Under the pieces are notes generated by a model, which did not search any database, was not told where the DNA came from, and saw nothing but the letters and a program-made list of their open reading frames with translations. A DNA stretch of 64,000 bases, taken from Candidatus Saccharimonadota bacterium. GTDB taxonomy: Bacteria > Patescibacteriota > Saccharimonadia > Saccharimonadales > Saccharimonadaceae. Positions within the stretch are counted from its first letter, which is position 1. The number at the start of each line of letters is the position of its first letter. Of the stretch, positions 8,193-64,000 are shown in pieces. The position numbers and the translations under genes are program-made. The DNA is taken from NCBI GenBank assembly GCA_030530425.1, contig JAUMVA010000001.1, forward strand, positions 16,132-80,131, in the 5' to 3' direction.

Positions 8193-8193
8193 T

Positions 8194-29436: not shown

Positions 29437-29465
29437 TATTTTTATTAGTTACTATCAGTCTAGAT

Positions 29466-34470: not shown

Positions 34471-34472
34471 TT

Positions 34473-37580: not shown

Positions 37581-37581
37581 C

Positions 37582-40631: not shown

Positions 40632-40650
40632 TTTTTTCCTTTCTCAAAAC

Positions 40651-41580: not shown

Positions 41581-41631
41581 AGTTATTGATATTATATCAC
41601 TTTTAAGGTTTTTTGTTTAATTTACAGATGA

Positions 41632-41979
41632 TTATTTAATAATTTGAGCTTGTTGCAATTCATTCGTTATTTTTTGCTCAAGTTCACTAAAATTAATTTC
41701 CGCTAATTCCAGAGAATGAGCAATAAAAATTAGATCATAATTTTTCGTAAATTGCGATATTTTTGGATGTAATAAACTATAAACCCGACGACGAACAAAA
41801 TTACGCTTTACAGCATGCTTTGCCACTTTTTTTGATATTACTACCGCAATACGAGAAAATCGCTTTCGTGGATTTGGACAAAATTTAATTGTGAATAATT
41901 TTGTTCTGATAGTTTGACCATTTTTATAGGTAAACGTCAAACTATTATGTCCATGAAAGCGATTTTTAAAAGGTATCAT
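41632..41979 (-). CDS. rnpA: Ribonuclease P protein component
   Basis: 115 aa, basic, RNR-like motif region (…VKRNFVRRRVYSL…); follows rpmH. Confidence 0.85.
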   Translation of the reverse strand: MIPFKNRFHGHNSLTFTYKNGQTIRTKLFTIKFCPNPRKRFSRIAVVISKKVAKHAVKRNFVRRRVYSLLHPKISQFTKNYDLIFIAHSLELAEINFSELEQKITNELQQAQIIK

Positions 41980-43830: not shown

Positions 43831-43839
43831 TTATGTCCT

Positions 43840-44070
43840 AATATCTGTGGATAAGTTGTGTAAAAGCTGTGCTTTATTTAAAAATATTAGTGAATAAATT
43901 GTGATTAACTATTAACTTTTGCACATTATTATATTTTTAAAAAGCCGTCTTGTGGTTAAAAACTATATTTTACACATTTAAAACACAGCTTTTAACCAAT
44001 ATTATCAACAACTTATTTATAGCTTTGACAGATGATACTTATAGTTTTACACAATTTCCACAACCCTTAC
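43840..44070. promoter_or_regulatory. Second DnaA-box cluster between dnaA and dnaN
   Basis: TGTGGATAA (43846-43854, perfect), TGTGGTTAA (43951-43959), TTTTACACA/TTTCCACAA (44046-44062); AT-rich. Confidence 0.55.
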
Positions 44071-44112
44071 TAATATGTCTAATATATGTTAAAATATAAA
44101 TAAGGAATAATT

Positions 44113-45210: not shown

Positions 45211-45217
45211 ATAAAAT

Positions 45218-48074: not shown

Positions 48075-49036
48075 TATAGATCTCCTGCTGGTTGATCATT
48101 AGCCTTGCGAGTGTAAACCGTTGATATTTGATCAAAATTTACCAACGCTTCGCGTGCTGAAATATCAGGATTATAAAAATTATAAAATAGTTGACTTAAT
48201 TGTGCGGTGTTTAGCTGCTTTGCCTGTACGCCGACTTGTGATAAGCCACTGATAACTACATCAACGCGGTTTTGTATTTCTTCTTTAGCTTTTAAATAAG
48301 TTTGATTATTGATTTTAACTGGTTGGCTTGGATTTTTATTTGATGAAAATAAGCTTGTGAGGATATTTTGTGATTGTTTTTTAATATCATTAAATGATTC
48401 GGTAGTTGAATAATATGGTATTACCACATAAAAAGATTTATCCATAATATTAGCTTCTTGAGCTAACATTTCAATATAGTTTAAATAATCATCCATTAAT
48501 ACATTTAATAACATATTATCTTGTTCAGAGCGAATTTTGAGCAGTTTTTCTAAATAAGGACCTATGTCGACTTTATTAGATCGAATTAAAATTTGAATTG
48601 GAAAATAAAGTGAATTTAAGAATCCCTGATAACCATATTCGATACCTTCTCGCTCACGATAACTCATTAAATCGAAGTTAATTGATTTACAAACGACAAC
48701 AGCTTTGTAGCTGCCATCTTTCATAATTAAGATTCCTTCTTTAATTTCGGCAATTTGAAGTGTATTTTGAGTTGAATTAGGATTATTTGGCTGCGAAGAA
48801 GTTTTTTGAGTTGAAATATTAGCTTTGCCAGAATCTTTAATTGTTGGTGGTTGTGACTGATTTATTGTTGGCGATGTATTAGTTTGAATATCAGTTGGTT
48901 GGATTTGCGACATTGGCACAGATTGTTCTGACTTGACTGGTTGAGCAAAGTTTGGATTATTTACTGAATAATTGCCATTATTGACTGGCTGTGATTGTGG
49001 GCCGGGATTGGATTGGTTGTACTGATTTGGGTTCAT
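48074..49036 (-). CDS. VirB4 N-terminal-domain-like protein with Pro/Gln/Asn-rich N-terminal low-complexity region
   Basis: 320 aa. C-terminal 200 aa (…IKEGILIMKDGSYKAVVVCKSINFDLMS..EREGIEYGYQGFLNSLYFPIQILIRSNKVD…) resembles the N-terminal domain of Gram-positive-type VirB4/TraE ATPases. First about 100 aa are a P/Q/N/S/T-rich disordered segment. Translationally coupled to the ATPase ORF. Confidence 0.5.
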   Translation of the reverse strand: MNPNQYNQSNPGPQSQPVNNGNYSVNNPNFAQPVKSEQSVPMSQIQPTDIQTNTSPTINQSQPPTIKDSGKANISTQKTSSQPNNPNSTQNTLQIAEIKEGILIMKDGSYKAVVVCKSINFDLMSYREREGIEYGYQGFLNSLYFPIQILIRSNKVDIGPYLEKLLKIRSEQDNMLLNVLMDDYLNYIEMLAQEANIMDKSFYVVIPYYSTTESFNDIKKQSQNILTSLFSSNKNPSQPVKINNQTYLKAKEEIQNRVDVVISGLSQVGVQAKQLNTAQLSQLFYNFYNPDISAREALVNFDQISTVYTRKANDQPAGDL

Positions 49037-49037: not shown

Positions 49038-50042
49038 TTATTTTAATGAAATGACGACTTCTTCATTTTCTCCATCAATTAATTTACGTCGTTGGTTAAT
49101 TTTTTTAGCTTCAGCAGCTATAGTTTGAATTGATAAATTGTCATTATTTGCTAAGTTTATTATATCAGGTGTGGGTGAAAAAGTATAAGTATTTTGTGAA
49201 TGCTGTGATGATTGATCAATAGTTGGTTGTTCTGATTGTATTGGTTCTATAATTGTTGTTGATTGATTAGTATCCAAAACTGCAGCTTGTTCTTTATTAA
49301 CTGTCTGTTGAGATTGAGACATATTTTGTAATGACTTATAGTCTGATGATGAAATATTAATATTGATTTCTTTTTGATAGTCTTGAATATTTTGAAAGTT
49401 GTTTGTTATACCTAAAGAAACATTTGGTGTAATGTGATTATCTTGTTGTTGGGAACTTTGTTGCAGTTGATTAATGATTTGTTGACGTTGAGTTTGTTGT
49501 TGCTGATTAATAATTTGATCAAAATTTTGATTTACGCTAGCATATTCATCATGAATATCTTCGACTTGTGTTGATTCAGCTAAAACTTCTGATTGAATAC
49601 TTGGATTTGTGATTAATTGATTGCGAATAATCATACCATTCGAGTCGACTACTCCCGAAAGAAAACTAATTTGTTGTTTGGCTTGTTCAAATGAAATATC
49701 TGGTCCAACCGATTGTTCTTGGGGTAGATCATTAGTAAATTCAACTAAACTAATAATGCCATCCTGCTCCCAAATTTTGCGACGTGGTTTAAAATAAAAT
49801 GATAATAAAGCTGCAATATAAATCTCCATTGGTTGATCTTTTTTTAGTGGCAGTGATAATACTAAGAAAATAATTGCAAACGGCGCTGGAATGATTACCA
49901 GCGGTACGAAAATTAACGCCAAAAAATATCCTAGCCCACCAAACATTATAGCAACAACTAAATAAATGAATTGCCTAAAGCTCAATGGTCCAAGCAATTT
50001 ATCTTCGGCTTCGACATCTTGCGGAACTTTATAGCTTGCCAT
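49038..50042 (-). CDS. PrgI/VirB3-like two-TM membrane protein with long Q/N-rich C-terminal tail
   Basis: 334 aa. N-terminal about 90 aa with a TM hairpin (FRQFIYLVVAIMFGGLGYFLALIFVPLVIIPAPFAIIFLVLSL) sits directly upstream of virB4-like genes, as for PrgI/TcpE/VirB3. Remainder is Q/N-rich (QQQQTQRQQIINQLQQSSQQQ…). Confidence 0.45.
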   Translation of the reverse strand: MASYKVPQDVEAEDKLLGPLSFRQFIYLVVAIMFGGLGYFLALIFVPLVIIPAPFAIIFLVLSLPLKKDQPMEIYIAALLSFYFKPRRKIWEQDGIISLVEFTNDLPQEQSVGPDISFEQAKQQISFLSGVVDSNGMIIRNQLITNPSIQSEVLAESTQVEDIHDEYASVNQNFDQIINQQQQTQRQQIINQLQQSSQQQDNHITPNVSLGITNNFQNIQDYQKEININISSSDYKSLQNMSQSQQTVNKEQAAVLDTNQSTTIIEPIQSEQPTIDQSSQHSQNTYTFSPTPDIINLANNDNLSIQTIAAEAKKINQRRKLIDGENEEVVISLK

Positions 50043-50078: not shown

Positions 50079-50555
50079 CTAATAATAAACGTGGTTATCT
50101 GTACTGTCTATTTTTTGTGTGTTGAAATAAATATTCACTAATGTATTATTATAATCTAAAACAATCTTATATTTTTCGTTACTATCATTAATTGTAAGTA
50201 TAAAACTAGCCATATCGGTGTTAGTTGACTTATTATATTCTGAATTTATGTCACTGATTGTAGCTTCTTTATAATCAAATTCGCCATGCAATGAAATGAG
50301 ATGATTAACGATGGCTTTTGTAATAAAATTCTGCCATCTTAAACTAGTCATTTCACCGATTGAAAAACCATTTTTGGCAGTTTTTTCCCAGCCAAATATA
50401 ATAATGGTATTTTTTTCTGGAACACCAGACCCACCAGTTTGTCGTGAATTATTTGACTGATTATTGATAAATATATATATTAAACTAATAATTACAAATA
50501 GACCTAATAAAACTGATAATAAGATTAAAATTCGTTTTTTATTTAAATCTCTCAT
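50079..50555 (-). CDS. Small single-pass membrane protein, T4SS cluster-associated, unknown function
   Basis: ATG at 50555 with SD GGGAGG 8 nt upstream; ATGA overlap with the upstream hydrolase gene. The ORF track starts at an upstream TTG (50570). N-terminal TM (ILILLSVLLGLFVIISLIYIF). Confidence 0.45.
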   Translation of the reverse strand: MRDLNKKRILILLSVLLGLFVIISLIYIFINNQSNNSRQTGGSGVPEKNTIIIFGWEKTAKNGFSIGEMTSLRWQNFITKAIVNHLISLHGEFDYKEATISDINSEYNKSTNTDMASFILTINDSNEKYKIVLDYNNTLVNIYFNTQKIDSTDNHVYY

Positions 50556-52531
50556 CGTGATACCTCCCAATAATTTTTAGAAGCTGCTTGTATTTGAGCT
50601 TGAGTAAACGATGATTTAGTCTTTTGTTCGCTAGCCGGATCTATAATTTTTATTTTTCCATCGTTATCGAGACCTCTTAAAGCCATTATATGTCCACTTG
50701 TAGTAAAATCTCCAGGACCTTGTGAATTTATTACCCAACTGCCTCTTTTTAAAGCTTCTACTGCTTTTGAAGAATCATTCTCTAATTTTGTTACTTTTAA
50801 ATTAAATTTAGCTGGTACGCTAGTAAAAGAACCCCATGATATACCCACGTTTGCAAAACTAGATAATTCAGCGATTGTTTCTGGAGTAACTGATTGATTA
50901 CAAGTCAAATTTGCTATTATTATAGCCAGCGTGGTTGGACCGCAACCAAAATCAACAATTTTTTGACCAACTTGTTTTATTGTTTTATTTTTCCAAGGTT
51001 CTTGGTATTGATAATAAGCTAATAATCCGTCAACTACTTGAGTTCCTGGTTCACCATTTGTTTTCCAATTACCACAAGTTCCGGTATTAATAGTTGATGA
51101 AACACAATTATTGTTAGAATTGAATTCAACGCTCGATCCTAATTGTTCTGCATCAATTGCATCACCAGCTAAAGCGTAAATTTCGTTAGTCCATTGAGTA
51201 ACATGATCAACATATAATTTTTCGTTATTACCATCTGAACTTGGTGCATACTTATGGATAAATTCTGGAAGTGTTAAATCCGAACCGTAAATTCGATTCA
51301 CATAAATAAACATATTATCTGCATCTTTTCCAAATATACTATCTCTAAATGAGTTCCATTTATACCAATAACCGCTTTTAGCTGTAATTATATGTGGTTG
51401 GCTTTTTGTAGCTCTTCGTCCAAAACTATTTTTTCCATCTTTAACTTTGGCGGTATTGGCAGTGCCTAAGCTACTTTCTTGTCTTGCCAAAGTATAAACT
51501 ATGACCGGATTAATTCCTTCTGCCATACCACCAGCCACAATATCTTTACCAAGACCTCTGAATGGTGAATCGGGATGACTTTGTTCAGTCCACTTATCAA
51601 TGGCTTCTGCTAATCTATTAACGTCATTAATTTTCATTAATTTAAATGGTTTTTGATTATTATCACGTTGACCAATTGACTGATTTGAGTTTGATCCGCT
51701 AGAAGCCGTTGATGAGTTACTGTTTGAACCACCACCTTGCTTCATTAAATAGTTATAAATTAGAAATGCGCCTGGTCGTGAGTCTTTATGGCCACATTCA
51801 AAACCATGTTTTTTAGCTTGTTCGCAATATCCTTGATGATCTAAATAACCATTGTTAGAATAATTTGTAGAATAATTTAATAAATAGCCAAAATCGCGCC
51901 ATGTTAGATTAGCTCGTTCATAAAGAAAACCTCGACCCCATCCTAAAAACATATTGCCAATATTATCGATTGTCCAATTGGTGGTAGATTTAAGACTAAA
52001 ACCACTTCTTTCAGCCCATCCTTGAAGATGTTCTAAACCAACTTTTAAATCGTCGAAGTAATTTTTTCCAGGTGCATTTTTATCTAATGAGGCTTCTGCG
52101 GATGTTCCAAAACTATTACCACCGTTGAGGATTGTTTTATCTGTTCCAAATCCACGCTCTCTAAAATCAACCATTGCTAAAAAGATCCAAGTTTCTTCAA
52201 CGAATCCAATTTCTTTTGCAGCTTCGATATATAATTGTTTTCTAGTTTTATTATCGTAAACGATCTCTTTATTTACCTTGTTATTAATCACTGACTCGCC
52301 GTTTTTTTCGAGCCAATTTTTACCTTCTTCGTTCGGTACTATATCGTCAAAACTAGTAAGTGCACCGAGACCACCATTCGTATTATTGCATTCACCATTT
52401 GGATTATAAAAACGAATATCGTTGCGAATACCAAATAATTCACTAAATTCAAAGGCATAAACAGTATAAGAAGAAATGATTGAACAACAAAAAATTATAC
52501 TAAAAATAATAGCTATTTTACGTCTTTTCAT
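50552..52531 (-). CDS. Secreted peptidoglycan hydrolase: GH73 glucosaminidase-like domain + C-terminal papain-like (peptidase C39-like/CHAP-like) Cys-His domain
   Basis: 659 aa. Signal peptide; central …TLARQESSLGTANTAKVKDGKNSFGRRAT… resembles the GH73/FlgJ glucosaminidase catalytic motif (ESGWG…NNLFGIKA). C-terminal …DFGCGPTTLAII…TSGHIMALRG… fits a Cys/His peptidase of the C39-like type. Confidence 0.55.
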   Translation of the reverse strand: MKRRKIAIIFSIIFCCSIISSYTVYAFEFSELFGIRNDIRFYNPNGECNNTNGGLGALTSFDDIVPNEEGKNWLEKNGESVINNKVNKEIVYDNKTRKQLYIEAAKEIGFVEETWIFLAMVDFRERGFGTDKTILNGGNSFGTSAEASLDKNAPGKNYFDDLKVGLEHLQGWAERSGFSLKSTTNWTIDNIGNMFLGWGRGFLYERANLTWRDFGYLLNYSTNYSNNGYLDHQGYCEQAKKHGFECGHKDSRPGAFLIYNYLMKQGGGSNSNSSTASSGSNSNQSIGQRDNNQKPFKLMKINDVNRLAEAIDKWTEQSHPDSPFRGLGKDIVAGGMAEGINPVIVYTLARQESSLGTANTAKVKDGKNSFGRRATKSQPHIITAKSGYWYKWNSFRDSIFGKDADNMFIYVNRIYGSDLTLPEFIHKYAPSSDGNNEKLYVDHVTQWTNEIYALAGDAIDAEQLGSSVEFNSNNNCVSSTINTGTCGNWKTNGEPGTQVVDGLLAYYQYQEPWKNKTIKQVGQKIVDFGCGPTTLAIIIANLTCNQSVTPETIAELSSFANVGISWGSFTSVPAKFNLKVTKLENDSSKAVEALKRGSWVINSQGPGDFTTSGHIMALRGLDNDGKIKIIDPASEQKTKSSFTQAQIQAASKNYWEVSR

Positions 52532-52567: not shown

Positions 52568-54769
52568 TTACAGAAGTGGTAGTTGATTAAAAATTTGTTG
52601 TAAACGATTATCAATAAAATAGATTGCATAGAGTGCTTTTTGTTCAGAGTTTTGTAGACAACTCGCTCCATCGTCAAAACCATTTTCACTATTACCGATC
52701 GGCAAATTGCCTCGATTAACACAATTTTTTTCATAATCAGCTAAACCATTTTGTCTGACTAATTGACAATCGGAAGTACAATTTGGATCAGCTAAAGCTA
52801 AATCTCCACTGGCGATTAATCGATTGATTACTTCTTCGGTTGACAAATTTAAATGTGTCGTTGAGGTGCCATAAACTGGATTGCAAAAGACATCAAGAGC
52901 AATTTCTTCACCATTGGTTAAATATTGATTTAATTTTGCATAAGTTGAATCTTGACAGTTGCTTAAACTATTATAAGTTTTAGTCGATGATGTAGCTTGA
53001 GAAATTGGATTAATTGTCGCTAAACTATAATTGACTGATTTTAAGAAGTTGGCGCTAAAAGTTAATAATGATGAAACCTGCGATAATAACGATAAATTAT
53101 GATAAACGATACTACCAAGAAAAGTGTATTTGGAGCTAGTATCAAATGGATTAAGATTTTTTTGATCAATTTTAGCTTGCATAGCTAAACGCTTATCTTG
53201 TTCATTTAAAAAAGCTACAGCTTGTCGTTTAGTCAAAACACCACTACCGCCACGTGCAGCATTACGACCTAAAAAGGCTCCAAATCCAGCCGCTGCGGCA
53301 TTACCAAAATCCTCCCCTGCTGTTTCGGAATCAACATGTCGATTAGACATTGCAGCTAAAGTGTTTTCAGTAAGTTTGCGACTACTATTGTTATCAAAAT
53401 TAGTTGATAAATTTAACTTGAATGGATTAAGAAAATTAAGAATATTGGCAAAGAAATTACTGAGAAATGATGTCTGGGATTGGCTATTACAATGTTGTTG
53501 ATTGGTATCGGAAATTAATTGATTAGTGGTCGGAGTTGCACCGAGGATATAACGCTCAGTATTGTCATCTGGAATAACTGCATCACCATAGGCTGCATAT
53601 TTATAACCAATTGAATCAGTGGCGGCTTTTGTTTTTATAATTGTGCCATCGTTTTTGACAGTCTGAAAAGTTTTAGTTAAACGATTACCATAATATTCAA
53701 CAGCTTCTGGTGTAGCAACTCCAGCTTTAATTTTATCTGATTCAATTGCTAAATTAAGTGCGAATTTAGCTTGTTGACTAGCTTGTTTAGTTTTAGCATA
53801 ATCCTGCAAAAAAATACTGTTTTGATAAGCTCCACAAGCGCTTTGATTTGAAATAAAATCAGTTTCAACTAATTTTAAATTATCAAATTTTTGTTGAAAT
53901 GGTGTTTGATTTTTTTCTGATAATTTATCTGCTTGCTGATTAATATAAGTTAAATTATTAGTTAATGATCTTAACAAGTTTGCGTTTGGGGTATCAATCT
54001 CATGTTCATTCCCCTGTTCATCTTTAGTAGTCGGAATGGTAGTATTAAAACGTAAGCCATATTCATTAATTTTTGTTAAATCATTTTCTTGTTTGCGATA
54101 GTCTTCTATAATTTTTTGATGATCACTTGACTCTGGTTTTTTAAAGCCAGCTTTTGACAAACCTAGGTTATTAGCATTATGTTGCCAAGCTTGATCTTGA
54201 AATACGATTCGTTTACTTAAAAAAGCCACATTTTTCGCTTCATTGATAGCAACGTTAGTTTGAAGCTGATTCAAAAAATCTGCTTTATTAATTGGTTGAT
54301 TTTTAAACCAAACTGCTCGAATTTGTTTATTTTGAATATCAAAATGAAAACCTTGGCTTTCAAGGTTTTTAATTAAATTATCGGAAATTTGGCGACGTTG
54401 GTTAATCTCAGCATAGCGACTATTGGTTGGTTGAGATGTAAATAAATTATCAAGCATTAAATTTGCTCGAGCGTTTAAACTAGTTTGATCAGTATCATAA
54501 CGATCAACAAAAGTTTGAACAAAATGATTAATTAATAATCCTGGTAATGACACTATTAAAACCGCAATTCCAGCTAACAGCAATAGCATTGATAAGCTAA
54601 TTATTGGGATGATTTTTTTGAAATTTTTTGGTTTTGATCCTGGTTTAAAACGAAAATAATTAGTTGATTTTTTTCTAGTTTGATTAACATCATTATCGGT
54701 ATCATCGCTAATTTGTGAGCGATTTTCCCAGAAACGTAATTGGTCTAAAGATTGATAATAATCAGTCAT
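52568..54769 (-). CDS. Membrane-anchored large extracytoplasmic protein, T4SS cluster-associated, unknown function
   Basis: 733 aa; cytoplasmic N-terminal about 50 aa, one TM (IPIISLSMLLLLAGIAVLIVSL), then about 650 aa S/T/N/Q-rich extracellular region with 10 Cys. Confidence 0.5.
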   Translation of the reverse strand: MTDYYQSLDQLRFWENRSQISDDTDNDVNQTRKKSTNYFRFKPGSKPKNFKKIIPIISLSMLLLLAGIAVLIVSLPGLLINHFVQTFVDRYDTDQTSLNARANLMLDNLFTSQPTNSRYAEINQRRQISDNLIKNLESQGFHFDIQNKQIRAVWFKNQPINKADFLNQLQTNVAINEAKNVAFLSKRIVFQDQAWQHNANNLGLSKAGFKKPESSDHQKIIEDYRKQENDLTKINEYGLRFNTTIPTTKDEQGNEHEIDTPNANLLRSLTNNLTYINQQADKLSEKNQTPFQQKFDNLKLVETDFISNQSACGAYQNSIFLQDYAKTKQASQQAKFALNLAIESDKIKAGVATPEAVEYYGNRLTKTFQTVKNDGTIIKTKAATDSIGYKYAAYGDAVIPDDNTERYILGATPTTNQLISDTNQQHCNSQSQTSFLSNFFANILNFLNPFKLNLSTNFDNNSSRKLTENTLAAMSNRHVDSETAGEDFGNAAAAGFGAFLGRNAARGGSGVLTKRQAVAFLNEQDKRLAMQAKIDQKNLNPFDTSSKYTFLGSIVYHNLSLLSQVSSLLTFSANFLKSVNYSLATINPISQATSSTKTYNSLSNCQDSTYAKLNQYLTNGEEIALDVFCNPVYGTSTTHLNLSTEEVINRLIASGDLALADPNCTSDCQLVRQNGLADYEKNCVNRGNLPIGNSENGFDDGASCLQNSEQKALYAIYFIDNRLQQIFNQLPLL

Positions 54770-54825
54770 AATATAATATTAAATTACTCTTATATTATAT
54801 CATATTTAGTTAATTTTCTCAATAA

Positions 54826-57800
54826 CTAACGGAATGAATCAAGATATTTCAGACCTTTTTGACTAGTCACAGTTTTGCAAATTCGATCAATTTGTTGATC
54901 GCGAACTGGACCGCTATGAAAACCAGCTATAAATTGTTTAAAGGCAACATCTTCCAGACTTCCACTAGCGTAACCTTTAAATTTCATCCAATTGGTGCGA
55001 TCAGCGAATGAATCGCTGATGATGTTAATCCGATTATTTTCTAGATCAGTTTTGTTAATGGTAGACGTTTCTTTCACAAAATTCATTTCATTACCTGGCG
55101 CTGCTGTTGTATGAGTTTCACCATTTAAAGCCTGTTCTAAAGTTGCACCATTAGTTTTTTCAACGCGTTTGTAAAGTTGACGAACTAGAGAAGCTGGAGC
55201 TTGTTTGTCTTCTTTTTCATACATTTTGTCGATAGTTTTAAAAGTTGCTTTTAATAGCTCACTATCACCGCCTCTATTAAGATAAATTTGCGAAGCTCGA
55301 CGAATATCATCAAAATCACCATGACCATTATCAGCCATTGAAACCATTGACGATAAAATAATATTAGGATTACTTTTAATACTATTCAAGAAAGTGCTAG
55401 TTTGATCATTTTCAGCAGTGGTCATACTACTTGAATTAACATAGCTTAAATCACTACTAAAACTATTATCATGTACAAAATCAGGATCACTAGTAATTAA
55501 ATTTTTAATTATACTTTGAGCAACGTTCTCACCTAATAAAGTTTGATCCTTGCCTAAATTTAATACTTCAGTAAAAGCTTTTTCGTCAATTTCAGGAATG
55601 GTTGATTTATAATCAAAATAATCACCTTGATTAAATTTAAAACCTTTATTTCTGAGCATAGCTTCTGGAGTAAGATTATGCAAATTTCCAACTACTCCAG
55701 TTCCAAAATTACTAATTTGGCGACGAACTTTTTGTAAAGGAGTTTTAGAACCACGTTGCATTTGTCGTTGACGATTGAGATGGGCTTGTTGAACTTGCTG
55801 ATGAAAATTAGTTTTTTCATATTTTTCGCGAGCTGATTGAGGTATTGAACTAGCCAAACTGCCAACTTTACTACCAATTAGAGGTATACTATTAATCATA
55901 GTAAGTAATAATTTAGGCAGGGCTAAATAAGACGCAATAATTGGTAGTGGTGATAAGATAACTACTACTCCGCCACTTTGATACATAATTTTTGCTACAA
56001 ATCCGGCTGCTCCAATTAAGGCACTAGCCATCGGATAAAACATTAAAATAGAGGTCATAGTTTTTGACCATAATGAAAATAATTTGTTTGAACTAGCTGT
56101 GATCAAGCTTGCTAAAGCAATCGGCATGATTAAGACTAAAATTACAAAAACAGCATCACGAACTGCTAACATTACAAAAGCTATTAAAACCGTTAAGAAA
56201 ACTACAATTATAATTGGAATGAATATTGCGGCTGTAAAAACAGCTGAACCAAATAATAAGAAAAGACTACTACCGGCTAGAATCTCAGCACCTAATGTAA
56301 TTAAAAAACTACCGTAATCCACGCTACCAAGTTTAGCTAATAAAGCTGCTAGTGAGTCGCCGACGATATTACTCATATCAGCTGCGCCCGCAATTAAGAA
56401 GTAAGATAAATTAATTAATAATGCAAAAATTGCCAATCGTGGCAATAAACGACGAAAATGATAATTACCATTACGAAAATTAGTAATGGTTCCAAAAATC
56501 ATTATGATAAAAACTAGAATTAAGATAATGTTTGAAAAATTACGAAAAAATTTCCAGGCATCATGCAAAATAACTGAGCCAGTTTTTTTTGAAGTTTTTA
56601 CAAAAATTTCAGTTTTTAGACGTAATGCATCGCCGACTATTTTCATTCCACCAGTGGCGGTATTGGTCATGAATCTAGTTGGTGCACAGATAAACAAAGC
56701 TGTTACTCCTCTGAATAAACAAGCTGATGAAGTTTTATAGTATTGATTGGCTGTATCAGCTGGATTAGCAAAAGCGTTCTCAGAGTTAAAGAAAAAATTC
56801 ATCTCATAGGCGTTAAACGGCAGCCAACGTTTGATAATATCAATATCGCGTCTATGATCAAGTATTTTTCTTACATTATCTGGGTTACTCATCATGGTCG
56901 TTAAGAACAAACCAAGTTTATAATCAACTTTTATAAAATCACTTTGTGGGTCAGTTGTACCATTAGTACCGTTATCATCAATATTAGGTGCTTCAAATAA
57001 TGATAAATTTATCAAGTCCTGACCGCTTGCATTAACTAATGCATGAATTGATAGGGCTTTATTATCATTACCTTCGCTATATTTGCAACCAATATTATCT
57101 AAAAAATCTGTTAATTTTTTATCCGCTTCCGCTTCATTTCCAGATTCTATAAAAAATCTTTTCCACTTATATTGTAAAATATGTTCGTTTTCATCTTTAC
57201 ATAATTCGCTTAGATTGTCTGGCATTTTTGGTGCTGGATCGGATTGATATTGACCAATTTTTTGTCCCCAAATAATAGTCTCCGGGTCGATGCCGTTATT
57301 TAAATGACCAATGCGCTCATAAAGAATATCGTCTTCTTCTTTATTGGCAGTTGCGTGAAGAATTCGTGCGGCTAAAATATTATATTTAGTATAAAAAATA
57401 TTATTTTCGTCTAATTTTGGCGTATAAAATTCAGGATATGCTCCTGTGTTTGTATCCCCACTTGCTGAATTATCAATAATTCTAACAAAATCAGGATTAT
57501 TTTTAGTTTCAGTCTCAACAAGTTTAGTATCAATATAAGAAGCTAAAAAAGCTAAAAATGCAAGTCGAATGCGCTCGGCTTCAAAAATATTTGGACAATA
57601 AACTACATCATTTTTAAAATCTTTAGTCGTTGGTCCTTTGCAGTTTTCTAGTTCTTGATAAAGATATTTTGCAAATATAACAATTTGATCGATGGTTTCT
57701 TCTTTGCTTAACTTATTGCTTTTAGGATATTGTGTATCAATATTAAATTTTTCATATTTAATACTAGCGTTAGCTTGTGCTGTTATAGATAATGTCATTA

Positions 57801-57852
57801 ATATTGTGATAAAAAAAATGCTGATAAAATGTCGAAATTTTGAAGATATCAT
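54826..57852 (-). CDS. VirB6/TrbL-like polytopic T4SS membrane protein, paralog 4 of 4, with large N-terminal (about 400 aa) and C-terminal (about 330 aa) extracytoplasmic extensions
   Basis: 1008 aa. Signal peptide; central polytopic core (…IILILVFIIMIFGTITNFRNGNYHFRRLLPRLAIFALLINLSYFLIAGAADMSNIVGDSLAALL…VRDAVFVILVLIMPIALASLI…) is alignable to the three upstream paralogs. Confidence 0.6.
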   Translation of the reverse strand: MISSKFRHFISIFFITILMTLSITAQANASIKYEKFNIDTQYPKSNKLSKEETIDQIVIFAKYLYQELENCKGPTTKDFKNDVVYCPNIFEAERIRLAFLAFLASYIDTKLVETETKNNPDFVRIIDNSASGDTNTGAYPEFYTPKLDENNIFYTKYNILAARILHATANKEEDDILYERIGHLNNGIDPETIIWGQKIGQYQSDPAPKMPDNLSELCKDENEHILQYKWKRFFIESGNEAEADKKLTDFLDNIGCKYSEGNDNKALSIHALVNASGQDLINLSLFEAPNIDDNGTNGTTDPQSDFIKVDYKLGLFLTTMMSNPDNVRKILDHRRDIDIIKRWLPFNAYEMNFFFNSENAFANPADTANQYYKTSSACLFRGVTALFICAPTRFMTNTATGGMKIVGDALRLKTEIFVKTSKKTGSVILHDAWKFFRNFSNIILILVFIIMIFGTITNFRNGNYHFRRLLPRLAIFALLINLSYFLIAGAADMSNIVGDSLAALLAKLGSVDYGSFLITLGAEILAGSSLFLLFGSAVFTAAIFIPIIIVVFLTVLIAFVMLAVRDAVFVILVLIMPIALASLITASSNKLFSLWSKTMTSILMFYPMASALIGAAGFVAKIMYQSGGVVVILSPLPIIASYLALPKLLLTMINSIPLIGSKVGSLASSIPQSAREKYEKTNFHQQVQQAHLNRQRQMQRGSKTPLQKVRRQISNFGTGVVGNLHNLTPEAMLRNKGFKFNQGDYFDYKSTIPEIDEKAFTEVLNLGKDQTLLGENVAQSIIKNLITSDPDFVHDNSFSSDLSYVNSSSMTTAENDQTSTFLNSIKSNPNIILSSMVSMADNGHGDFDDIRRASQIYLNRGGDSELLKATFKTIDKMYEKEDKQAPASLVRQLYKRVEKTNGATLEQALNGETHTTAAPGNEMNFVKETSTINKTDLENNRINIISDSFADRTNWMKFKGYASGSLEDVAFKQFIAGFHSGPVRDQQIDRICKTVTSQKGLKYLDSFR

Positions 57853-59789
57853 TTTGCATTCTCCATTGCGCGACTAGTACGAGCACTCATTTCAGCGTTA
57901 GCTTGTGCAGTTTTAACAGTGTTGGCAAATAGCGGTTCACTATGATAAAGAGCTTTAAAGACAGCTTGACCATCACTACCGTTATCAAGAGTCTTATAAT
58001 TCATAATAACTAAATCATCAGAATTTAGTTTTTCAAATCCTTCTTTCATGTAAGTTTGTCGGTTCGCATTTCGCGTAGCCATATTAGAGTCAAGCTGATT
58101 GTTTTTTTGCAATCCAGCAATATAAGACGAAGTATCGTAACGACCTTTATTACTCGAAGCAACACGAATCTTTTCAGATAAATCACTAATAGATGATTTA
58201 GTAACGCCACCATTTTTGCTTGCGTATAACATTGCTTCATCATAGCTTCTACTATCTAAACTACCGCGTTTAGCTGAACCTAATGCTCCGGCCATAGCTA
58301 ATTGTGACATATCATTACCAGTTAAACCAGCTGCAGCAATTGCTTGTCGTGCACTAGCAGATAATCCCGTAGTATTAATTGAACTATTACCTGCTGCAAT
58401 GGCGGCTTGAATTGCTACAGAATCACTCTCACTTAATCGATCACTCAAAGAGTCAATTTGAGAGTTTGCTCGCTGATTTATCTCATCTAGCCGAGCTTGG
58501 CCAGTCAATGTTTTGTTTGATATAACGCCTTGTAATTTACTATTACCGCGCAAAAAAATATTTTTACCTCTGTATTGACCAGAATTCACTTGATCAGTAC
58601 GAAATTGATCACGTTTTTTACGCATAGTCATATAACCGCTATTATTGAATTTTTTATTACTCCAATTTTGAAATTTACCAAGTGTGTTGCTAATTTTAGA
58701 ACCGACTAATGGCATTGACGCAATGGCACTTTTGACTAAATTTGGTGCAAAAACCATTGGCATAGCTGACATAATAAAGGCTAGAGCTTGGGTAATAATA
58801 CCATTATTACTACGAGCTAATATTGCACTAACAAGGCTGGAAGCACCAAATAACATGCCCATAATTGGAAACATCATACAAACAACTGTCATGCCCTTTT
58901 TCCAGGTTTTATAAATATTCTCAGCGTTTGGAAAAATTAATGCTAAGAAGGCAATTGGCGACATAATAATTAAAATGACAGCAATCGCTTCTCGAGCAAT
59001 TAAAAAGAGTAGTGTTATTATTACAGTAATAATAAATGCGAATAACATTGTAAATATTGTAGTTAATAATCGTGTTTGTAGAGAAGCTATCGCAATCGAA
59101 AAAACTGCTGCAATTAAAATTGCTGCTCCAACACCACCTTTTGTACCACCTTCAGCGAGTAGTACATTTTCAAAAGTCTTAAACAAAGACGCGATACTAG
59201 TACCAATAATATTTGATAAGTCAATTAAAATTAATGATAGATAAAATGATAAATTAATCAAAACTGCTGCCATAATAACTTTTGGTAAAGCTTTTTTAAT
59301 ACTGTAATTATTTAGCCCATAGCCTGTTAATTGGCTAAAAATCATGACTAAAAAGAAAATTACTAATCCAGAATTGGCTAAATTGCGAACTTGCCCCCAA
59401 CTTGCTCGGTTTGATTTTTGAGAAACGTTTTCAGGATTAATATAGAAGAAAGTTTGTAAAAAACTAAAAGATGAATCAGCTATATTACCAACTAATTCAA
59501 AAAGTGGACAAATTAGCCAACCTAATAAACCAACATTACACTTTGTATTATTGCTACAGACTTCAGTTGCAGATTTTTTTTCTTCTTCAGAAGGGTTTTT
59601 CTTGTCTTTAAGATATATTTTAACACATTCATCGATATTATTTTGAGTGTCTATACTATCTTTGAAAGGTCCAGATGTCGCTTCGGCTTGATTAGAAAAA
59701 AAATTAACAATTAATAAACAACTTAATAATATAAAACTAATAAACTTTAGCTTTTTAAACATAGTATCATTATACAATATTAAGTTCAT
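57849..59789 (-). CDS. VirB6/TrbL-like polytopic T4SS membrane protein, paralog 3 of 4
   Basis: 646 aa. Signal peptide, Cys-rich N-domain, core …VIFFLVMIFSQLTGYGLNNYSIKKALPKVIMAAVLINLSFYLSLILIDLSNIIGTSIASLF… and …AREAIAVILIIMSPIAFLALIFPNAENIYKTWKKG…; Ala/Ser-rich C-terminal domain. ATGA-coupled to flanking paralogs. Confidence 0.6.
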   Translation of the reverse strand: MNLILYNDTMFKKLKFISFILLSCLLIVNFFSNQAEATSGPFKDSIDTQNNIDECVKIYLKDKKNPSEEEKKSATEVCSNNTKCNVGLLGWLICPLFELVGNIADSSFSFLQTFFYINPENVSQKSNRASWGQVRNLANSGLVIFFLVMIFSQLTGYGLNNYSIKKALPKVIMAAVLINLSFYLSLILIDLSNIIGTSIASLFKTFENVLLAEGGTKGGVGAAILIAAVFSIAIASLQTRLLTTIFTMLFAFIITVIITLLFLIAREAIAVILIIMSPIAFLALIFPNAENIYKTWKKGMTVVCMMFPIMGMLFGASSLVSAILARSNNGIITQALAFIMSAMPMVFAPNLVKSAIASMPLVGSKISNTLGKFQNWSNKKFNNSGYMTMRKKRDQFRTDQVNSGQYRGKNIFLRGNSKLQGVISNKTLTGQARLDEINQRANSQIDSLSDRLSESDSVAIQAAIAAGNSSINTTGLSASARQAIAAAGLTGNDMSQLAMAGALGSAKRGSLDSRSYDEAMLYASKNGGVTKSSISDLSEKIRVASSNKGRYDTSSYIAGLQKNNQLDSNMATRNANRQTYMKEGFEKLNSDDLVIMNYKTLDNGSDGQAVFKALYHSEPLFANTVKTAQANAEMSARTSRAMENAK

Positions 59790-62722
59790 AATGTGACTCC
59801 GTTGTTTTTTGCGATTTGTTCGACGATTCGCTTGCGCATAGATTGATTTACTACGGAATTAATTGGATGAGTGCTTCTTAATGAATTTAATAAATCAGTA
59901 TCAAAACAGAGAATTTTTTTCGTTTCTTCGTCTAATTCGTCATAATTATCAATAAAGGTATCACGCATATTTTCATCATTGTATAGTTCCTCAATAAATA
60001 CGTGATTAGCAACTGTATTTCTTTCGACATATTGGGCGCGTAATTTTGCCACAAAATTCTCTGATTTACTTGGCGTGGCTTGAACGAGAGAACGTAGCCC
60101 AATTTTAGTTTGTTCCTTAATTTCAGATTGCAAATTAAAATTAGGATCAGTGACGCTGAGTGGAGTAGATGATTCGGCTTTATCAATATTGTCTAGATTA
60201 AAGCCAGCATAATGATTAGTTTGATTTCGATGAGCATTCATGATACCGATAGTACGAAAATCTCCCATCGATTGTAAGTTATTAACTGTTGTATCAAAAC
60301 GATCTTTAGCCTGAACAGAGTCTTCAGGTAATGAATTATTTGCGTCTTGAATATCTCGACTAATATCTCTAGAAAAATTACGTACTCCTTGAATTGCTTG
60401 CTGTAATTTATTGCCGCTTGGGGTAATATTAGGTTGTGCGCCAGATGCAGCATTTAAGCTGCGTAAAATATCTTTGGTCGAATGCTGAGTGGTCAGATTA
60501 GAAGTTTTCTTATCTTTAATAGTTTGCTGTTGAACATTTGCCATAACTCGTCCAATTTGTTGTGGTGTGAATTGACGTCGCAATAAATTATACTGTTGCT
60601 GACCATTAGCGGACAAATCAGCTGGTTCTTTGCCATCGTGAATTGCTTGAATAATTTTATCTGCATCACTCGGAATAAATAATTTGGCTTTAGCTTCTAA
60701 TTTTTTATCTAGTTGCTGCTGTGCAGCTAAAGCGTTATGAACACTAAATTTTCCTAATGATTTAGCTTCACGTTCTAATTTACGATTAGTTTTTAGTTCC
60801 TGTTTCATTTTATAGCCAACACTGTTTTTATAACGATTTAAAGAACCCGTAACTATTGCCAACGGCATAACTGACGGTATTTTATTAACTATCGGCATAT
60901 TGGATAGTACTTTGATATTTGATATAGCTCTTAAAGCAACATAAGGCGATGCGATTAAAGAGCCAGAAAAGGCTAGTTTTGCTAAGATAAATTGAATATT
61001 TTTGTCCAAACCAGAACCGCTAGTAGCACTGACTAAAATATTATGTGCTAGCTTTCCCCCGCCAATTAACATTGCCATACAAACAAAAATTGTTAACGTT
61101 GCGAATAACGCTCGCCACCAAATTTGACTTACGCGATTAGTATTTGGAAAAATCATTGATGCAAATGCTAGAGGCGAAGTTATAACTAAAATTATTATTA
61201 GGGCATTTCGTATAGTTAATAAAATAACATTGATTAGACCAGCTAGAACGGTTAAAATCATTGCTAAAATTAACATCAGCAATGAGACTAAATGAGCTAA
61301 AAACGCTCCAGTGCTGGCGTTAGCTCTGGATACAAAAGTAGCCGAACTTTCGAGTTCGCTACCGGCAAATAAAGAATAAACTCCCTGTCCTAAAATATTA
61401 GAAAAATCAATAAATATTTGTGAAAAATAGAATGACAAATTGATCACAATTGCTGCCAAAATTAATTTTGGCAACGCGCTTTTAATGCCATAATTTGACA
61501 ATCCGAAGTTAGTTAATTGAGAAAAAACGATAACCAAAAAAGCAATAATCATCATCGCATTTGCTATGTTGCGAAATTGTTTCCAAATTGGTTTAACAAT
61601 TGCATCTTTTGTTGTTTGGGTGGTAATTGGCAGAAAATCGTGATTGAGCACCTCGAATATGCCATCACTGGCTTTGGCTAAAAAATCACCAACAGTAGTC
61701 AGCAGCCAGCTTAAAGGTCCGAGTGAACCCTTCTTATATTCTCCTATTATATTTTTATCGTCAGCGCCATAATCTAATAAGTTAAATTGTTTATTAGCTG
61801 CTTTTTCAATGACATCATTCATTTTTATGAGTTGTTCTTCATTAATTGCCGATAAAACTGCATTTATTTCGGCGCTTGTTGTAACTCCGTTATCAATTAC
61901 ATTCCAAGCCATTTGTCGTAAATAAACCGGCAATAATTTTTCATTTTTGAATATGCTGTCACTTTTGTCTGCTTTAGTGTTTAAGACATCGCTACAAACG
62001 TTTAATGCCTTTTTGTTATTTAATAACGAAGGTAATTTTTCGCATGAGTTTATAAAAGCAGTTACAAAAAGTGGTAAATCATTTTTTAAGCCAGTGATAT
62101 TCTCACTAATAAACATTAAGCGTTTTTTTGGATCCTCATGATAAGACTTTAGTTTTTCAGACATCTCTTGATCAGTCTTTTTTGCTTTTTCATTACTGAT
62201 TACTCGCCAATAAAAACTTTCACTTTCGTTTCCAATTTTTACAATGTCATTAGAAAACCATTTTGGGGAATTATGTGTGTAAATAGTACCAACTCCTTGC
62301 CCAATATGCTCACTAGTAATATAATCTAGAGAACAACCTGGCAAATCGTAATCCAACATATCGTCTGGTTTGTCGGAACTATGTCGAGAATATTGTGAAA
62401 AACTGCCAAATAAATAAAGCTGAAAAATTAATTTTAGATACTTTTTAGTTTGTTCTAGATTATCATCATTGCAGATTGAGTCTGGTTTTATTTGACCATA
62501 ACATAATGAGTAATAAGCATGTGTATATTTTGCAACTGTATATAAGGTGTCAGTATCAATATCTTTGTTATGTTTTTTAAATTTATTAACAAGGTCGTTT
62601 TTTATTTTTTCAACCACATTTTTAGCAGAACCAGTAGCTTTAGCTGGCTGATTTACAGAAAAAAACATGTTTCCAAAACATAGAATTACGAAGTATAAAA
62701 TTAAAAGTAATTTCTTTTTCAT
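59786..62722 (-). CDS. VirB6/TrbL-like polytopic T4SS membrane protein, paralog 2 of 4, with about 380-aa N-terminal and about 400-aa C-terminal extensions
   Basis: 978 aa. Core …IIAFLVIVFSQLTNFGLSNYGIKSALPKLILAAIVINLSFYFSQIFIDFSNILGQGVYSLF… is nearly colinear with paralog 3. …IRNALIIILVITSPLAFASMIFPNTNRVSQIWWRA… is also shared. Confidence 0.6.
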   Translation of the reverse strand: MKKKLLLILYFVILCFGNMFFSVNQPAKATGSAKNVVEKIKNDLVNKFKKHNKDIDTDTLYTVAKYTHAYYSLCYGQIKPDSICNDDNLEQTKKYLKLIFQLYLFGSFSQYSRHSSDKPDDMLDYDLPGCSLDYITSEHIGQGVGTIYTHNSPKWFSNDIVKIGNESESFYWRVISNEKAKKTDQEMSEKLKSYHEDPKKRLMFISENITGLKNDLPLFVTAFINSCEKLPSLLNNKKALNVCSDVLNTKADKSDSIFKNEKLLPVYLRQMAWNVIDNGVTTSAEINAVLSAINEEQLIKMNDVIEKAANKQFNLLDYGADDKNIIGEYKKGSLGPLSWLLTTVGDFLAKASDGIFEVLNHDFLPITTQTTKDAIVKPIWKQFRNIANAMMIIAFLVIVFSQLTNFGLSNYGIKSALPKLILAAIVINLSFYFSQIFIDFSNILGQGVYSLFAGSELESSATFVSRANASTGAFLAHLVSLLMLILAMILTVLAGLINVILLTIRNALIIILVITSPLAFASMIFPNTNRVSQIWWRALFATLTIFVCMAMLIGGGKLAHNILVSATSGSGLDKNIQFILAKLAFSGSLIASPYVALRAISNIKVLSNMPIVNKIPSVMPLAIVTGSLNRYKNSVGYKMKQELKTNRKLEREAKSLGKFSVHNALAAQQQLDKKLEAKAKLFIPSDADKIIQAIHDGKEPADLSANGQQQYNLLRRQFTPQQIGRVMANVQQQTIKDKKTSNLTTQHSTKDILRSLNAASGAQPNITPSGNKLQQAIQGVRNFSRDISRDIQDANNSLPEDSVQAKDRFDTTVNNLQSMGDFRTIGIMNAHRNQTNHYAGFNLDNIDKAESSTPLSVTDPNFNLQSEIKEQTKIGLRSLVQATPSKSENFVAKLRAQYVERNTVANHVFIEELYNDENMRDTFIDNYDELDEETKKILCFDTDLLNSLRSTHPINSVVNQSMRKRIVEQIAKNNGVTL

Positions 62723-64000
62723 TTTTTTCTCCCAATTTCGATGTTTTTTATGGCTTCTTGGGCAGTTCGAGAAACATTTGAGCTGTAGGTATTAGCAACG
62801 CCTATAATAATTTTTCCGACCACTTTCTGAGTCTCTGGATTCATAAAATCAAAATTTCGACCGAGTGACTCAGTATATGTTCCATGCCAAGTCAGATTTC
62901 CTGAAGCATAGCTTAAATCATCATTTGCTATACGAGTCAATGCCTCTTCTACAATTGAGTAAGTTGGAGCTGGATGACGATCGGTAGCAATAAAGTTAGT
63001 ACTGTTAAAATTATCAGCCTTAATCGATGTACTTGGTGTTTTTTGCAAAACACTAACAGTCTCATTTAAGAGTTGTTCATGATCAATTGGTGCGCTCATA
63101 GCTGATGTAAGTGAAGATTTAGTTGCTGTATTGGCATCATAATTTAATAAGGCGGCTGTTGAAACTTGTCCTGACTTGCGTGCCATAGCAGCTGCTCCAC
63201 GCATTTGAGCTATAATAGTGCCGTCATCAGAACCAGTTTTTTCAGCTCCAGTAACAATTTTTCGTAATAAGGTTTGGTCGGTAAAACCGTGCTTGCCGAC
63301 TGTATTAACCGCGCTGAAATAAAATAAATTATCTTTTCTTGCCCCTAGGTTAGTTAGCATTTTGAATTTTTGTTGTTGGGCGTTGTCTAAACCAGTGTCG
63401 CTATTATCGATAAAAGCCTGTAATAATTGGCGATCATTTCCGATAATATTACTATATTGTTGCTGAACCTGTGCATCTTTGCATAATTGTTGTTGCATTA
63501 AACGTTGACCAGCTCCGGCTGTTAAAAAGTTAAATGTTCGGCTTTTTAATATTTTTTTTGAAAAACGACTTTTGCTTACTTTAGAGTCAAAAGCTCGTTG
63601 TAAATTGCCTGAAATATTTTTATTAATCGTTGACTCACGACCTATTTTAGTGGTCATTTTAGTTCCTAATTTGCCAGCTGAAGTCAATTTATTTTTTATT
63701 AATTCTAATCCATTTAAGCTAGTAATTAAGACAAATGGTGCCAAACAAGTAGTCAAAACGGGCATAATTAAAGCAAGTAGGCGCAGGATTGTGTCCCCGC
63801 TTATTGCTAGCAGAAGCGACTTCAACAGAACACCTGACCCTACTAATAAACACATAATTGGATAAACGAGTAGTACGTTAGTAAAATTCTTTCTCCATGT
63901 GTCAAATAATCTTTCAGTAAAAGGAAATAATAATGACACAAAAACTATTGGCATCAGGACTACTAATAAAATCATCAAAGCTTGTCGAAAAGCTAATAAC
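62719..64000 (-). CDS. VirB6/TrbL-like polytopic T4SS membrane protein, paralog 1 of 4 (3' part only; ORF stays open to the window edge)
   Basis: The minus-strand frame stays open upstream of the ORF-track TTG (…LLAFRQALMILLVVLMPIVFVSLLFPFTERLFDTWRKN…). This aligns with AREAIAVILIIMSPIAFLALIFPNAENIYKTWKKG of paralog 3, which is mid-protein, so the N-terminal part lies outside the window. Confidence 0.55.
   Translation of the reverse strand, partial: LLAFRQALMILLVVLMPIVFVSLLFPFTERLFDTWRKNFTNVLLVYPIMCLLVGSGVLLKSLLLAISGDTILRLLALIMPVLTTCLAPFVLITSLNGLELIKNKLTSAGKLGTKMTTKIGRESTINKNISGNLQRAFDSKVSKSRFSKKILKSRTFNFLTAGAGQRLMQQQLCKDAQVQQQYSNIIGNDRQLLQAFIDNSDTGLDNAQQQKFKMLTNLGARKDNLFYFSAVNTVGKHGFTDQTLLRKIVTGAEKTGSDDGTIIAQMRGAAAMARKSGQVSTAALLNYDANTATKSSLTSAMSAPIDHEQLLNETVSVLQKTPSTSIKADNFNSTNFIATDRHPAPTYSIVEEALTRIANDDLSYASGNLTWHGTYTESLGRNFDFMNPETQKVVGKIIIGVANTYSSNVSRTAQEAIKNIEIGRKK

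Follow-up and report, generated by a model that had tools for sequence, protein, structure and literature searches.

A tandem array of five extended VirB6-like genes in the origin-adjacent type IV secretion system of a Candidatus Saccharimonadota bacterium

A 64,000-nucleotide stretch of the genome of a Candidatus Saccharimonadota bacterium (GenBank assembly GCA_030530425.1, contig JAUMVA010000001.1, positions 16,132 to 80,131 of the forward strand; hereafter, the window) ends with the last four of five tandem genes encoding extended VirB6-like subunits of a type IV secretion system (T4SS). The encoded proteins are 100% identical to those of one Candidatus Saccharibacteria metagenome-assembled genome. 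The cluster to which the array belongs is a chromosomal, origin-adjacent, relaxase-less T4SS conserved in Candidatus Saccharibacteria, which are very small bacteria growing on the surface of bacterial hosts. A first-pass annotation of the window, made from the DNA letters alone, regarded the presence of such a system in this type of genome as unusual; this does not hold, given that the T4SS is conserved next to the replication origin across Saccharibacteria and that Nanosynbacter lyticus TM7x already has two virB6 genes. What is new here is the expansion to five VirB6 copies, the T4SS itself being known. The explanation that we modestly favor for the whole is a five-copy VirB6 array of this known T4SS, with co-assembly of the copies as the preferred mode of use.

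The first-pass annotation described an array of four minus-strand genes. All four open reading frames (ORFs) were confirmed at the coordinates given below, but the array actually consists of five genes, copy 1 being located beyond the end of the window. Copy 1 and the full-length copy 2 were read from L081, a 26.5-kb Logan contig that is identical to the window where the two overlap. Copy 1, the fifth paralog, is a protein of 894 amino acids (aa) (Q3996_00400) encoded 60 bp upstream of copy 2. The latter is 1097 aa in full length (L081 2809-6102) and runs past the window end, so that the portion at 62719-64000 (minus strand), translated in frame from 63999, yields the C-terminal 426 aa, including the last part of the transmembrane (TM) core (approximately 63526-63999) and the C-terminal tail (62719-63525). 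Copy 3 (59786-62722, minus strand; 978 aa) consists of a signal peptide, an orphan N-domain of 355 aa, a TM core (approximately 60743-61780) and a C-tail of 378 aa. Copy 4 (57849-59789, minus strand; 646 aa) is the most compact, with a signal peptide, a 97-aa N-domain, a TM core (approximately 58560-59615) and a predicted helical C-tail of 296 aa, whereas copy 5 (54826-57852, minus strand; 1008 aa) is the most divergent and combines a signal peptide and a 404-aa N-domain with a TM core (approximately 55723-56784) and a 357-aa C-tail.

Copies 2 to 5 are coupled by ATGA stop/start overlaps (gaps -4, -4), which are present, as originally reported, at 62719/62722, 59786/59789 and 57849/57852, and each start is preceded, at a distance of 8-11 nt, by a GGAG-like Shine-Dalgarno motif. 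For copy 5, the public gene call is 990 aa; we favor the 1008-aa start because a GGAG motif is located 11 nt ahead of it and because the shorter call would truncate the signal peptide. Overlaps of the ATGA type also occur in relatives, namely, in the related locus L083 at junctions 2/3 and 3/4, and in L084 at two out of three junctions.

Judging from the sequence comparisons, the paralogy is real and not a compositional artefact. Pairwise BLASTP aligned the paralogs over a core of 260-417 aa, with 25-35% identity and E values of 1e-28 to 1e-53 (1e-28 to 1e-43 for the core of copy 3 against the other paralogs), and all shared peptide blocks quoted in the first-pass annotation are present. Each protein appears to have the same layout, with a cleavable Sec signal peptide followed by an exported N-domain, a hydrophobic core and a C-tail. 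Signal peptide sites of the AXA type were found in all five copies (AQA, AEA, AKA, VQA and VLA), and hydropathy analysis revealed about 7 hydrophobic helices after the signal peptide, again in all five. The common core of approximately 220-350 aa is hydrophobic and helical and contains 12 invariant residues (W, N, Y, P, N, S, D, G, R, P, A and W), several of which are polar (N, N, S, D and R) and lie inside hydrophobic helices; in alignments that did not include copy 2, these 12 residues are retained in copies 1, 3, 4 and 5. A Cys pair and a GWLICP helix just ahead of the core are conserved as well, and are present in copy 4.

The flanking regions are specific to each paralog. The N-domains range from 97 to 507 aa and contain 2-20 Cys residues, the maximum of 20 being in copy 2, whereas the C-tails (296-478 aa) contain 0-1 Cys, are predicted to be helical and are rich in Ser, Ala, Asn, Thr and Lys, a composition that differs from the Ala/Ser/Gln-rich one originally ascribed to them. 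The BLASTP matches of both N-domains and C-tails were to positional orthologs only and never to another paralog, in agreement with the initial observation that each paralog carries a different N-domain and tail. The N-domain of copy 3 has 4 relatives among 1.84 billion representative proteins, and 2 database relatives were found for copy 5, too few for a confident AlphaFold2 (AF2) model of its N-domain (pLDDT 30-55). Elsewhere in the window, a DsbA-like thioredoxin with an N-terminal extension is encoded at 11469-12146 (plus strand), which would be consistent with disulfide bonds being formed in the exported, Cys-rich N-domains of the paralogs.

The extensions were originally described as extracytoplasmic, which agrees with the signal peptides that lead the N-domains but applies less well to the C-tails. 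Across 35 family members, the loop charges alternate as in an N-out/C-in protein with 7 TM segments, and the first 50 residues of the C-tail have a net charge of +7. Because the charge pattern fits the N-out/C-in topology, the C-tails are probably cytoplasmic. The topology of the R388 VirB6 protein, in which only two N-proximal helices are in the membrane and the remainder is periplasmic (PMC12857230), argues the other way and makes an exported C-tail conceivable.

We file these proteins as extended VirB6-like, in agreement with the VirB6/TrbL-like assignment of the first-pass annotation, primarily because of the fold of the core. The AF2 models of the cores are of high confidence (pLDDT 85-95 for copy 4 and 80-93 for copy 5), and in Foldseek searches, chains of TrwI, the VirB6 protein of R388, ranked first for copy 4 and for the independently modelled copy 5, for which the top 4 matches were all TrwI chains. 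VirB6 (TrwI) and DotA are the best and only strong structural matches of the common core; a pentameric platform has been described for VirB6 and DotA (PMC12857230). An hhalign comparison with R388 TrwI aligned the SPxAF...PNT...W block with an E value of 7e-4. The sole recurring Pfam family is TrbL, which matched 11 of 38 family members at E<=0.01 (best, 8.9e-6), and precomputed matches to PF19590 TrbL_3 are on record for relatives. The array is linked with the genes for PrgI (approximately 4.8 kb) and VirB4 (approximately 6.8 kb) located downstream on the same strand, and this linkage is kept in relatives.

The sequence evidence is weaker, and several searches weigh against the VirB6 assignment. 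In Pfam, the fragment of copy 2 scored 24.1 bits against TrbL (PF04610), under the gathering score of 25.9, and copies 3, 4 and 5 had no match. Against all PDB sequences, the family profile retrieved only low-complexity noise, with VirB6 absent from the matches; none of 72,556 plasmids gave a significant tblastn match to the core; and hhalign found no match to PrgH of pCF10. NCBIfam and PHROG scans of the paralogs also produced no match.

We consider it very improbable that the paralogs are polytopic proteins unrelated to T4SS, such as O-antigen polymerases or ABC-2 permeases. This interpretation follows from existing database labels: NCBI names the 646-aa copy 4 'O-antigen polymerase', and KEGG assigns K01992 (ABC-2 type permease) to SEML1_0011 and SEML1_0013 of Southlakia epibionticum. 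However, in Pfam and NCBIfam, no Wzy/O-antigen model was matched at E<=0.1, and the same was the case for the ABC-2 models with any copy, a transporter family that the initial analysis had also raised as an alternative. Both candidates were rejected; the recurrence of TrbL/VirB6 as the only Pfam family, the VirB6 and DotA folds of the cores, and the invariable linkage of the paralog genes to those for PrgI and VirB4 all argue against them. The NCBI name of copy 4 looks like a misannotation.

The complete five-gene array is also present in four related loci (L084, L085, L093 and L094), and L083 has at least four copies. A metagenome scan with orthologs of copy 3 recovered 4 loci only, two of which carry all five genes, while another has four copies on a contig that stops within the array. 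In L086, copy 2 (6980-10266) occurs as two ORFs of 692 and 407 aa, and the remaining four copies are uninterrupted; the split represents either incipient paralog loss or an assembly error. The two loci that are closest by VirB4, L001 and L002, share copies 4 and 5, a 732-aa gene described below, and the same layout on the origin side. One or two copies are the rule in the Saccharibacteria loci examined; in 78 further species loci, the 10 kb upstream of VirB4 contain no more than two, and none where the contig is too short. Two tandem copies are found in Nanosynbacter, and two virB6 genes, TM7x_00055 and TM7x_00060, have been reported in TM7x (bioRxiv 10.1101/2022.03.25.485537); in S. epibionticum, SEML1_0011 and SEML1_0013 are syntenic homologs, both essential in transposon sequencing. 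Our literature search found no account of a Patescibacteria genome with more than two VirB6 genes.

When the cores were placed in a distance tree, every copy in the window clustered with its positional counterpart from L083 and L084. Copy 1 falls with the mainstream VirB6-like gene of Saccharibacteria, for example, that for an 844-aa Nanosynbacter protein, and its N-domain and tail are also common to this mainstream type, whereas copies 2 to 5 form clade-specific branches. The N-domains and tails are likewise orthologous position by position in relatives. The orthologs in L083 have 70-76% core identity, and the most distant one-to-one positional orthologs have 33-47%. Five copies thus arose by old duplications and have been stably retained in a small clade, as demonstrated by the one-to-one positional orthologs in distant relatives. 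Such old, retained copies argue against a recently variable, antigenic-type array and for non-redundant roles; the recently duplicated variable array was rejected on the strength of one-to-one positional orthologs down to 33-47% core identity, and the original suggestion that the array serves antigenic or host-range variation is weakened on the same grounds.

Between genomes whose VirB4 proteins are 88-89% identical, the VirB6 cores are only 33-44% identical, which indicates that, at the sequence level, the VirB6 copies evolve far faster than VirB4. Their orthologs have diverged to the point of saturation at synonymous sites. The size of the extensions also varies, about five-fold across the phylum, as can be seen from giant VirB6-like proteins in some Saccharibacteria, which have one core domain and a length of 1328-1672 aa (L009 818-5833, L059 3-4205 and L015 3987-7970). 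In Candidatus Microsaccharimonas sossegonensis, the second copy, a copy-1-type gene for an 889-aa protein (L088 10001-12670), is located far from the T4SS cluster, in housekeeping surroundings between rpsO and truB. In the main survey of Patescibacteria, 480 VirB6 homologs were reported in about 2,470 virB4-positive genomes, and the shortfall was attributed to divergence (PMC12102498). The divergence of copies 2 to 5, which are missed by hidden Markov models (HMMs), may explain why surveys report one virB6 or none.

Downstream of the array, the hydrolase, PrgI-like and VirB4 genes predicted in the first-pass annotation were all recovered on the minus strand. The gene next to copy 5 (52568-54769), between the VirB6 array and PrgI, encodes a bitopic membrane protein of 733 aa, for which Pfam gave only chance-level matches (E>=0.02, below cut-off) and NCBIfam and PHROG gave none. 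A 732-aa ORF is found at the same position in L001 (2897-5095) and L002 (5868-8066), and it is confined to the five-copy clade; this protein is possibly an additional clade-specific T4SS component. It is followed by a candidate secreted cell-wall hydrolase of 659 aa (50552-52531) with a C39-like cysteine peptidase domain and a putative VirB1-like role (Peptidase_C39_2, 7.5e-10; Glucosaminidase, 0.003, weak; NCBIfam peptidoglycan hydrolase, 1.4e-6), and by a small bitopic membrane protein of 158-163 aa with an N-terminal hydrophobic segment (50079-50570), which had only weak matches below cut-off in Pfam (DUF6438 and ODV-E18) and is possibly a VirB8-like component.

The next three genes encode a PrgI/VirB3-like protein of 334 aa (49038-50042; Pfam PrgI, 3.1e-12, 47.3 bits against a 27-bit cut-off), a TrsD-like protein of 320 aa related to the N-terminus of VirB4 (48074-49036; TrsD, 7.7e-4, 19 bits, weak, with another weak match to TraC_F_IV), and a VirB4-like ATPase of 599 aa and of the CD1110/MPF_FATA type (46275-48074; NF045971, 354 bits against a cut-off of 325; TraG P-loop, 1e-27). 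A TrsD-like gene adjoining VirB4 is a Patescibacteria arrangement (PMC12102498). The cluster converges with dnaA, dnaN and recF (42418-46270, plus strand), the end of recF being 4 bp from that of VirB4; dnaA and dnaN were recognized by the Pfam DnaA and DNA polymerase III beta families, and recF by a RecF-like sequence. Beyond dnaA are rnpA, yidC and jag (40170-41979). Because dnaA, dnaN and recF adjoin VirB4, the cluster is placed chromosomally at the replication origin. Patescibacteria T4SS have been described as MPF_FATA-derived, located near dnaA, devoid of relaxases and accompanied by arrays of VirB2-like pilins (PMC12102498); the Saccharibacteria T4SS is highlighted in a recent T4SS review (PMC12857230), and it is essential for the epibiotic growth of S. 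epibionticum (PMC10633639).

The proposal that the genes from the array to VirB4 form a single operon is plausible, but the 56 bp that separate copy 5 from the 733-aa gene contain a promoter-like site at 54794-54822 (minus strand). This site consists of TTGAGA, a 17-nt spacer and TATAAT with an extended TG (11 of 12 matches) and is the best of the region, where promoter and terminator scans were at background level. It counts against a single transcript, and the genes downstream of copy 5 may be transcribed separately from their own promoter.

The initial view that the machinery is not conjugative and serves an interaction with the host agrees with the published one (PMC10633639, PMC12102498). 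An integrative conjugative element, whose relaxase, coupling protein and integrase would lie outside the window, is even less credible than a non-T4SS identity of the paralogs, and we rejected it. VirB4 does belong to the conjugative CD1110/MPF_FATA type, and, weighing on the same side, L081 ends 63 bp upstream of copy 1, which is all that was seen of this genome beyond that gene, the pilin array being known from relatives only. However, as already noted in the initial analysis, none of the window ORFs that were scanned belonged to a relaxase, type IV coupling protein or integrase family, and at the origin the cluster is directly adjacent to recF, dnaN and dnaA. More than 570 VirB4 relatives were found; in the 80 closest Saccharibacteria species genomes, which were used for comparison, VirB4 is 77-89% identical, and in the closest relatives, L001 and L002, the cluster is in the same place. 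The same location and this level of VirB4 identity indicate vertical inheritance. On the far side, relatives carry no relaxase, coupling protein or integrase: VirB2-like pilin genes are divergent from copy 1 in L083, a divergent pilin array adjoins copy 1 in L083 to L087, and in L084-L086 five or six pilin genes are followed by HSP20, a phosphoribosyltransferase and GroES/EL. Because pilins and housekeeping genes are found beyond it in relatives, the array begins at the 894-aa copy 1. The remainder of the window consists of housekeeping genes, including an arginine deiminase operon and a low-GC polysaccharide island, and in a published survey, relaxases were located near virB4 in only 15 Patescibacteria genomes (PMC12102498).

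By analogy with better-characterized systems, the VirB6 cores would sit above the VirB3/VirB4 motor as a central platform or protochannel, with assembly of the VirB2-like pilins taking place on it, as proposed for R388 and Dot/Icm (PMC12857230). Going by published work, the machine would be used for the epibiotic interaction with the bacterial host, which is essential, and not for conjugation. The five copies would be co-expressed through translationally coupled genes. Our tentative preference, falling short of an even chance, is that they co-assemble into one mixed VirB6 platform in which each subunit contributes a different exported N-domain and a different tail. We favor co-assembly because copies 2 to 5 are coupled by ATGA overlaps, with overlaps at most of the L083 and L084 junctions, and because both copies are simultaneously essential in the two-copy S. 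epibionticum. A more specific and rather unlikely version of co-assembly is that the five paralogs are the five protomers of a single hetero-pentameric platform, one copy each, which would give the T4SS an asymmetric center. The idea derives from the pentamers of TrwI and DotA combined with the presence of exactly five one-to-one orthologous genes, four of them translationally coupled. If true, VirB6 would for the first time be known as a hetero-oligomer, with the five RvhB6 proteins of Rickettsia as its convergent counterpart.

One observation that tells against co-assembly, and favors alternative use of the copies, comes from TM7x, where the virB6 genes respond differently, shifting in opposite directions between the initial encounter and stable symbiosis (bioRxiv 10.1101/2022.03.25.485537). 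The main alternative, possible but on the unlikely side, is that the paralogs are alternative VirB6 subunits that would form separate, probably homo-oligomeric platforms according to the host or the stage of the life cycle (free swarmer, initial encounter or stable attachment), tuning pilus or substrate specificity. The paralog-specific N-domains and tails are compatible with such use, as is the evolution of the paralogs at a rate much greater than that of VirB4, expected of host-facing parts, and an alternative-complex model is also discussed for the rvhB6 genes of Rickettsia (PMC8035066). It has to be reconciled, however, with the ATGA overlaps of copies 2 to 5, which leave no space for separate promoters, have similar counterparts in relatives and imply joint, roughly equimolar synthesis, and with the essentiality of both S. 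epibionticum copies under a single co-culture condition.

Of the five copies, only copy 1 groups with the type that is widely conserved, with which it also has its N-domain and tail in common, whereas copies 2 to 5 are on clade-specific branches. It could be imagined, although we find this quite doubtful, that copy 1 alone is the platform subunit and that copies 2 to 5 have been neofunctionalised, with the VirB6-like module serving as an anchor or export signal and the N-domains or tails acting as adhesins, host-envelope-binding proteins, or processed or translocated effectors. Exported or processed domains occur in other extended VirB6 proteins, such as TraG of F and VirB6-2 of Ehrlichia. The orphan character of the copy 3 and copy 5 N-domains and the 20 Cys residues in that of copy 2 would also fit such roles. 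Against them, the 12 invariant core residues are kept in the divergent copies 3, 4 and 5 as they are in copy 1, and the modelled cores of copies 4 and 5 have the same fold with high confidence, which suggests that, at least in these two modelled copies, platform function is under selection.

The closest known systems are those encoded by SEML1_0006-0019 of S. epibionticum and by N. lyticus TM7x, which come from the same phylum, have the same gene set and are adjacent to dnaA (Wang et al. 2023, PMC10633639; Quinonero-Coronel et al. 2025, PMC12102498). Shared with them are the MPF_FATA VirB4, the TrsD-like protein, PrgI/VirB3, large VirB6-like proteins, among which copy 1 is the ortholog of the mainstream Saccharibacteria gene, the lack of a relaxase or coupling protein nearby, and divergent VirB2-like pilins (here, in relatives). 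Unlike these systems, which have two VirB6-like genes, the present cluster has five in tandem, with the 733-aa protein and the hydrolase inserted between the array and PrgI; unlike the mainstream type, copies 2 to 5 are confined to the clade and have diverged beyond the reach of standard HMMs.

The parallel with Rickettsiales, drawn in the first-pass annotation, is apt as an analogy. The VirB6 paralogs of Rickettsiales are arranged in tandem. Five paralogs, RvhB6a-e, are known in Rickettsia (PMC8035066) and four in Ehrlichia and Anaplasma (PMC8035066; Bao et al. 2009). As in the rvh system, the expansion occurs in a reduced genome with obligate host dependence, and the same two models, mixed and alternative complexes, are debated for the paralogs. 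However, rvh belongs to an unrelated lineage and is a P-type system of diderm cells, equipped with VirB8/9/10/11 and VirD4 and directed at eukaryotic cells, whereas the system described here is monoderm, MPF_FATA-derived and targets bacteria; library scans detected no VirB8, VirB9, VirB10, VirB11 or VirD4 families in the cluster or the window. In the libraries searched, the extensions had no sequence matches among characterised domain families; the resemblance to rvh has therefore most likely arisen by convergence and does not imply membership.

Of the structurally solved proteins, R388 TrwI/VirB6 and Legionella DotA (7O3V, 8RT9 and 9NGY) are pentamers with a matching core fold, and TrwI also shares the SPxAF...P-N-T...W motif region and is encoded near VirB3 and VirB4. 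The differences are a sequence identity of only about 8-18%, the size of TrwI (342 aa, without extensions), the absence of a recognisable VirB5/IcmX partner here, and the formation of TrwI and DotA homo-pentamers from one gene as opposed to the five genes of the array. In Gram-positive MPF_FA systems, Orf15 of Tn916 and ConG of ICEBs1 are examples of extended VirB6 proteins. VirB6 proteins of MPF_FA elements reach 700-900 aa and combine a polytopic core with large extra domains (PMC12857230). The MPF_FA elements and PrgH of pCF10 thus resemble the present system in their monoderm context and in the addition of large domains to a polytopic core, but MPF_FA VirB6 is single-copy and is carried on conjugative elements with a relaxase and a coupling protein, and PrgH has no detectable profile similarity to the paralogs described here.

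Several other features of the window deserve mention. A complete arginine deiminase system, typical of mammal-associated Saccharibacteria, is encoded on the minus strand at 12558-17636, with carbamate kinase (12558-13556), a DcuC-type carrier (13705-15336), ornithine carbamoyltransferase (15373-16365) and arginine deiminase (16365-17636). In S. epibionticum, the system is reported to be essential (PMC10633639). Beside this operon, a 571-aa protein (17672-19387, minus strand) contains a Laminin_G_3 (ConA-like lectin) domain and a domain similar to the N-terminal receptor-binding domain of clostridial neurotoxins, and is a candidate surface or host-binding protein. The low-GC island at 29400-39650 (26-30% GC, compared to 32-39% elsewhere) carries polysaccharide biosynthesis genes, including those for a flippase, a pyruvyl transferase, two GT2 glycosyltransferases and LytR-CpsA-Psr. 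In this island, the PGA_cap gene is split into two parts (31592-32140 and 31006-31569), which represents either a frameshift or pseudogene or a genuine split.

Saccharibacteria provided the first demonstration that a T4SS can be essential for growth of its own bacterium. VirB6, the central platform or protochannel subunit of this T4SS, is the duplicated and fastest-evolving part of the machine. Standard HMM surveys under-count VirB6 in Patescibacteria, given that three of the four copies in the window have no Pfam match. Five distinct copies have been fixed in one host-associated clade, and the same number arose independently in Rickettsia, so that the array, of moderate interest for specialists in T4SS and in the candidate phyla radiation, offers a concrete stoichiometric hypothesis and a second system, with a bacterial host, in which to ask why obligate symbionts multiply VirB6.

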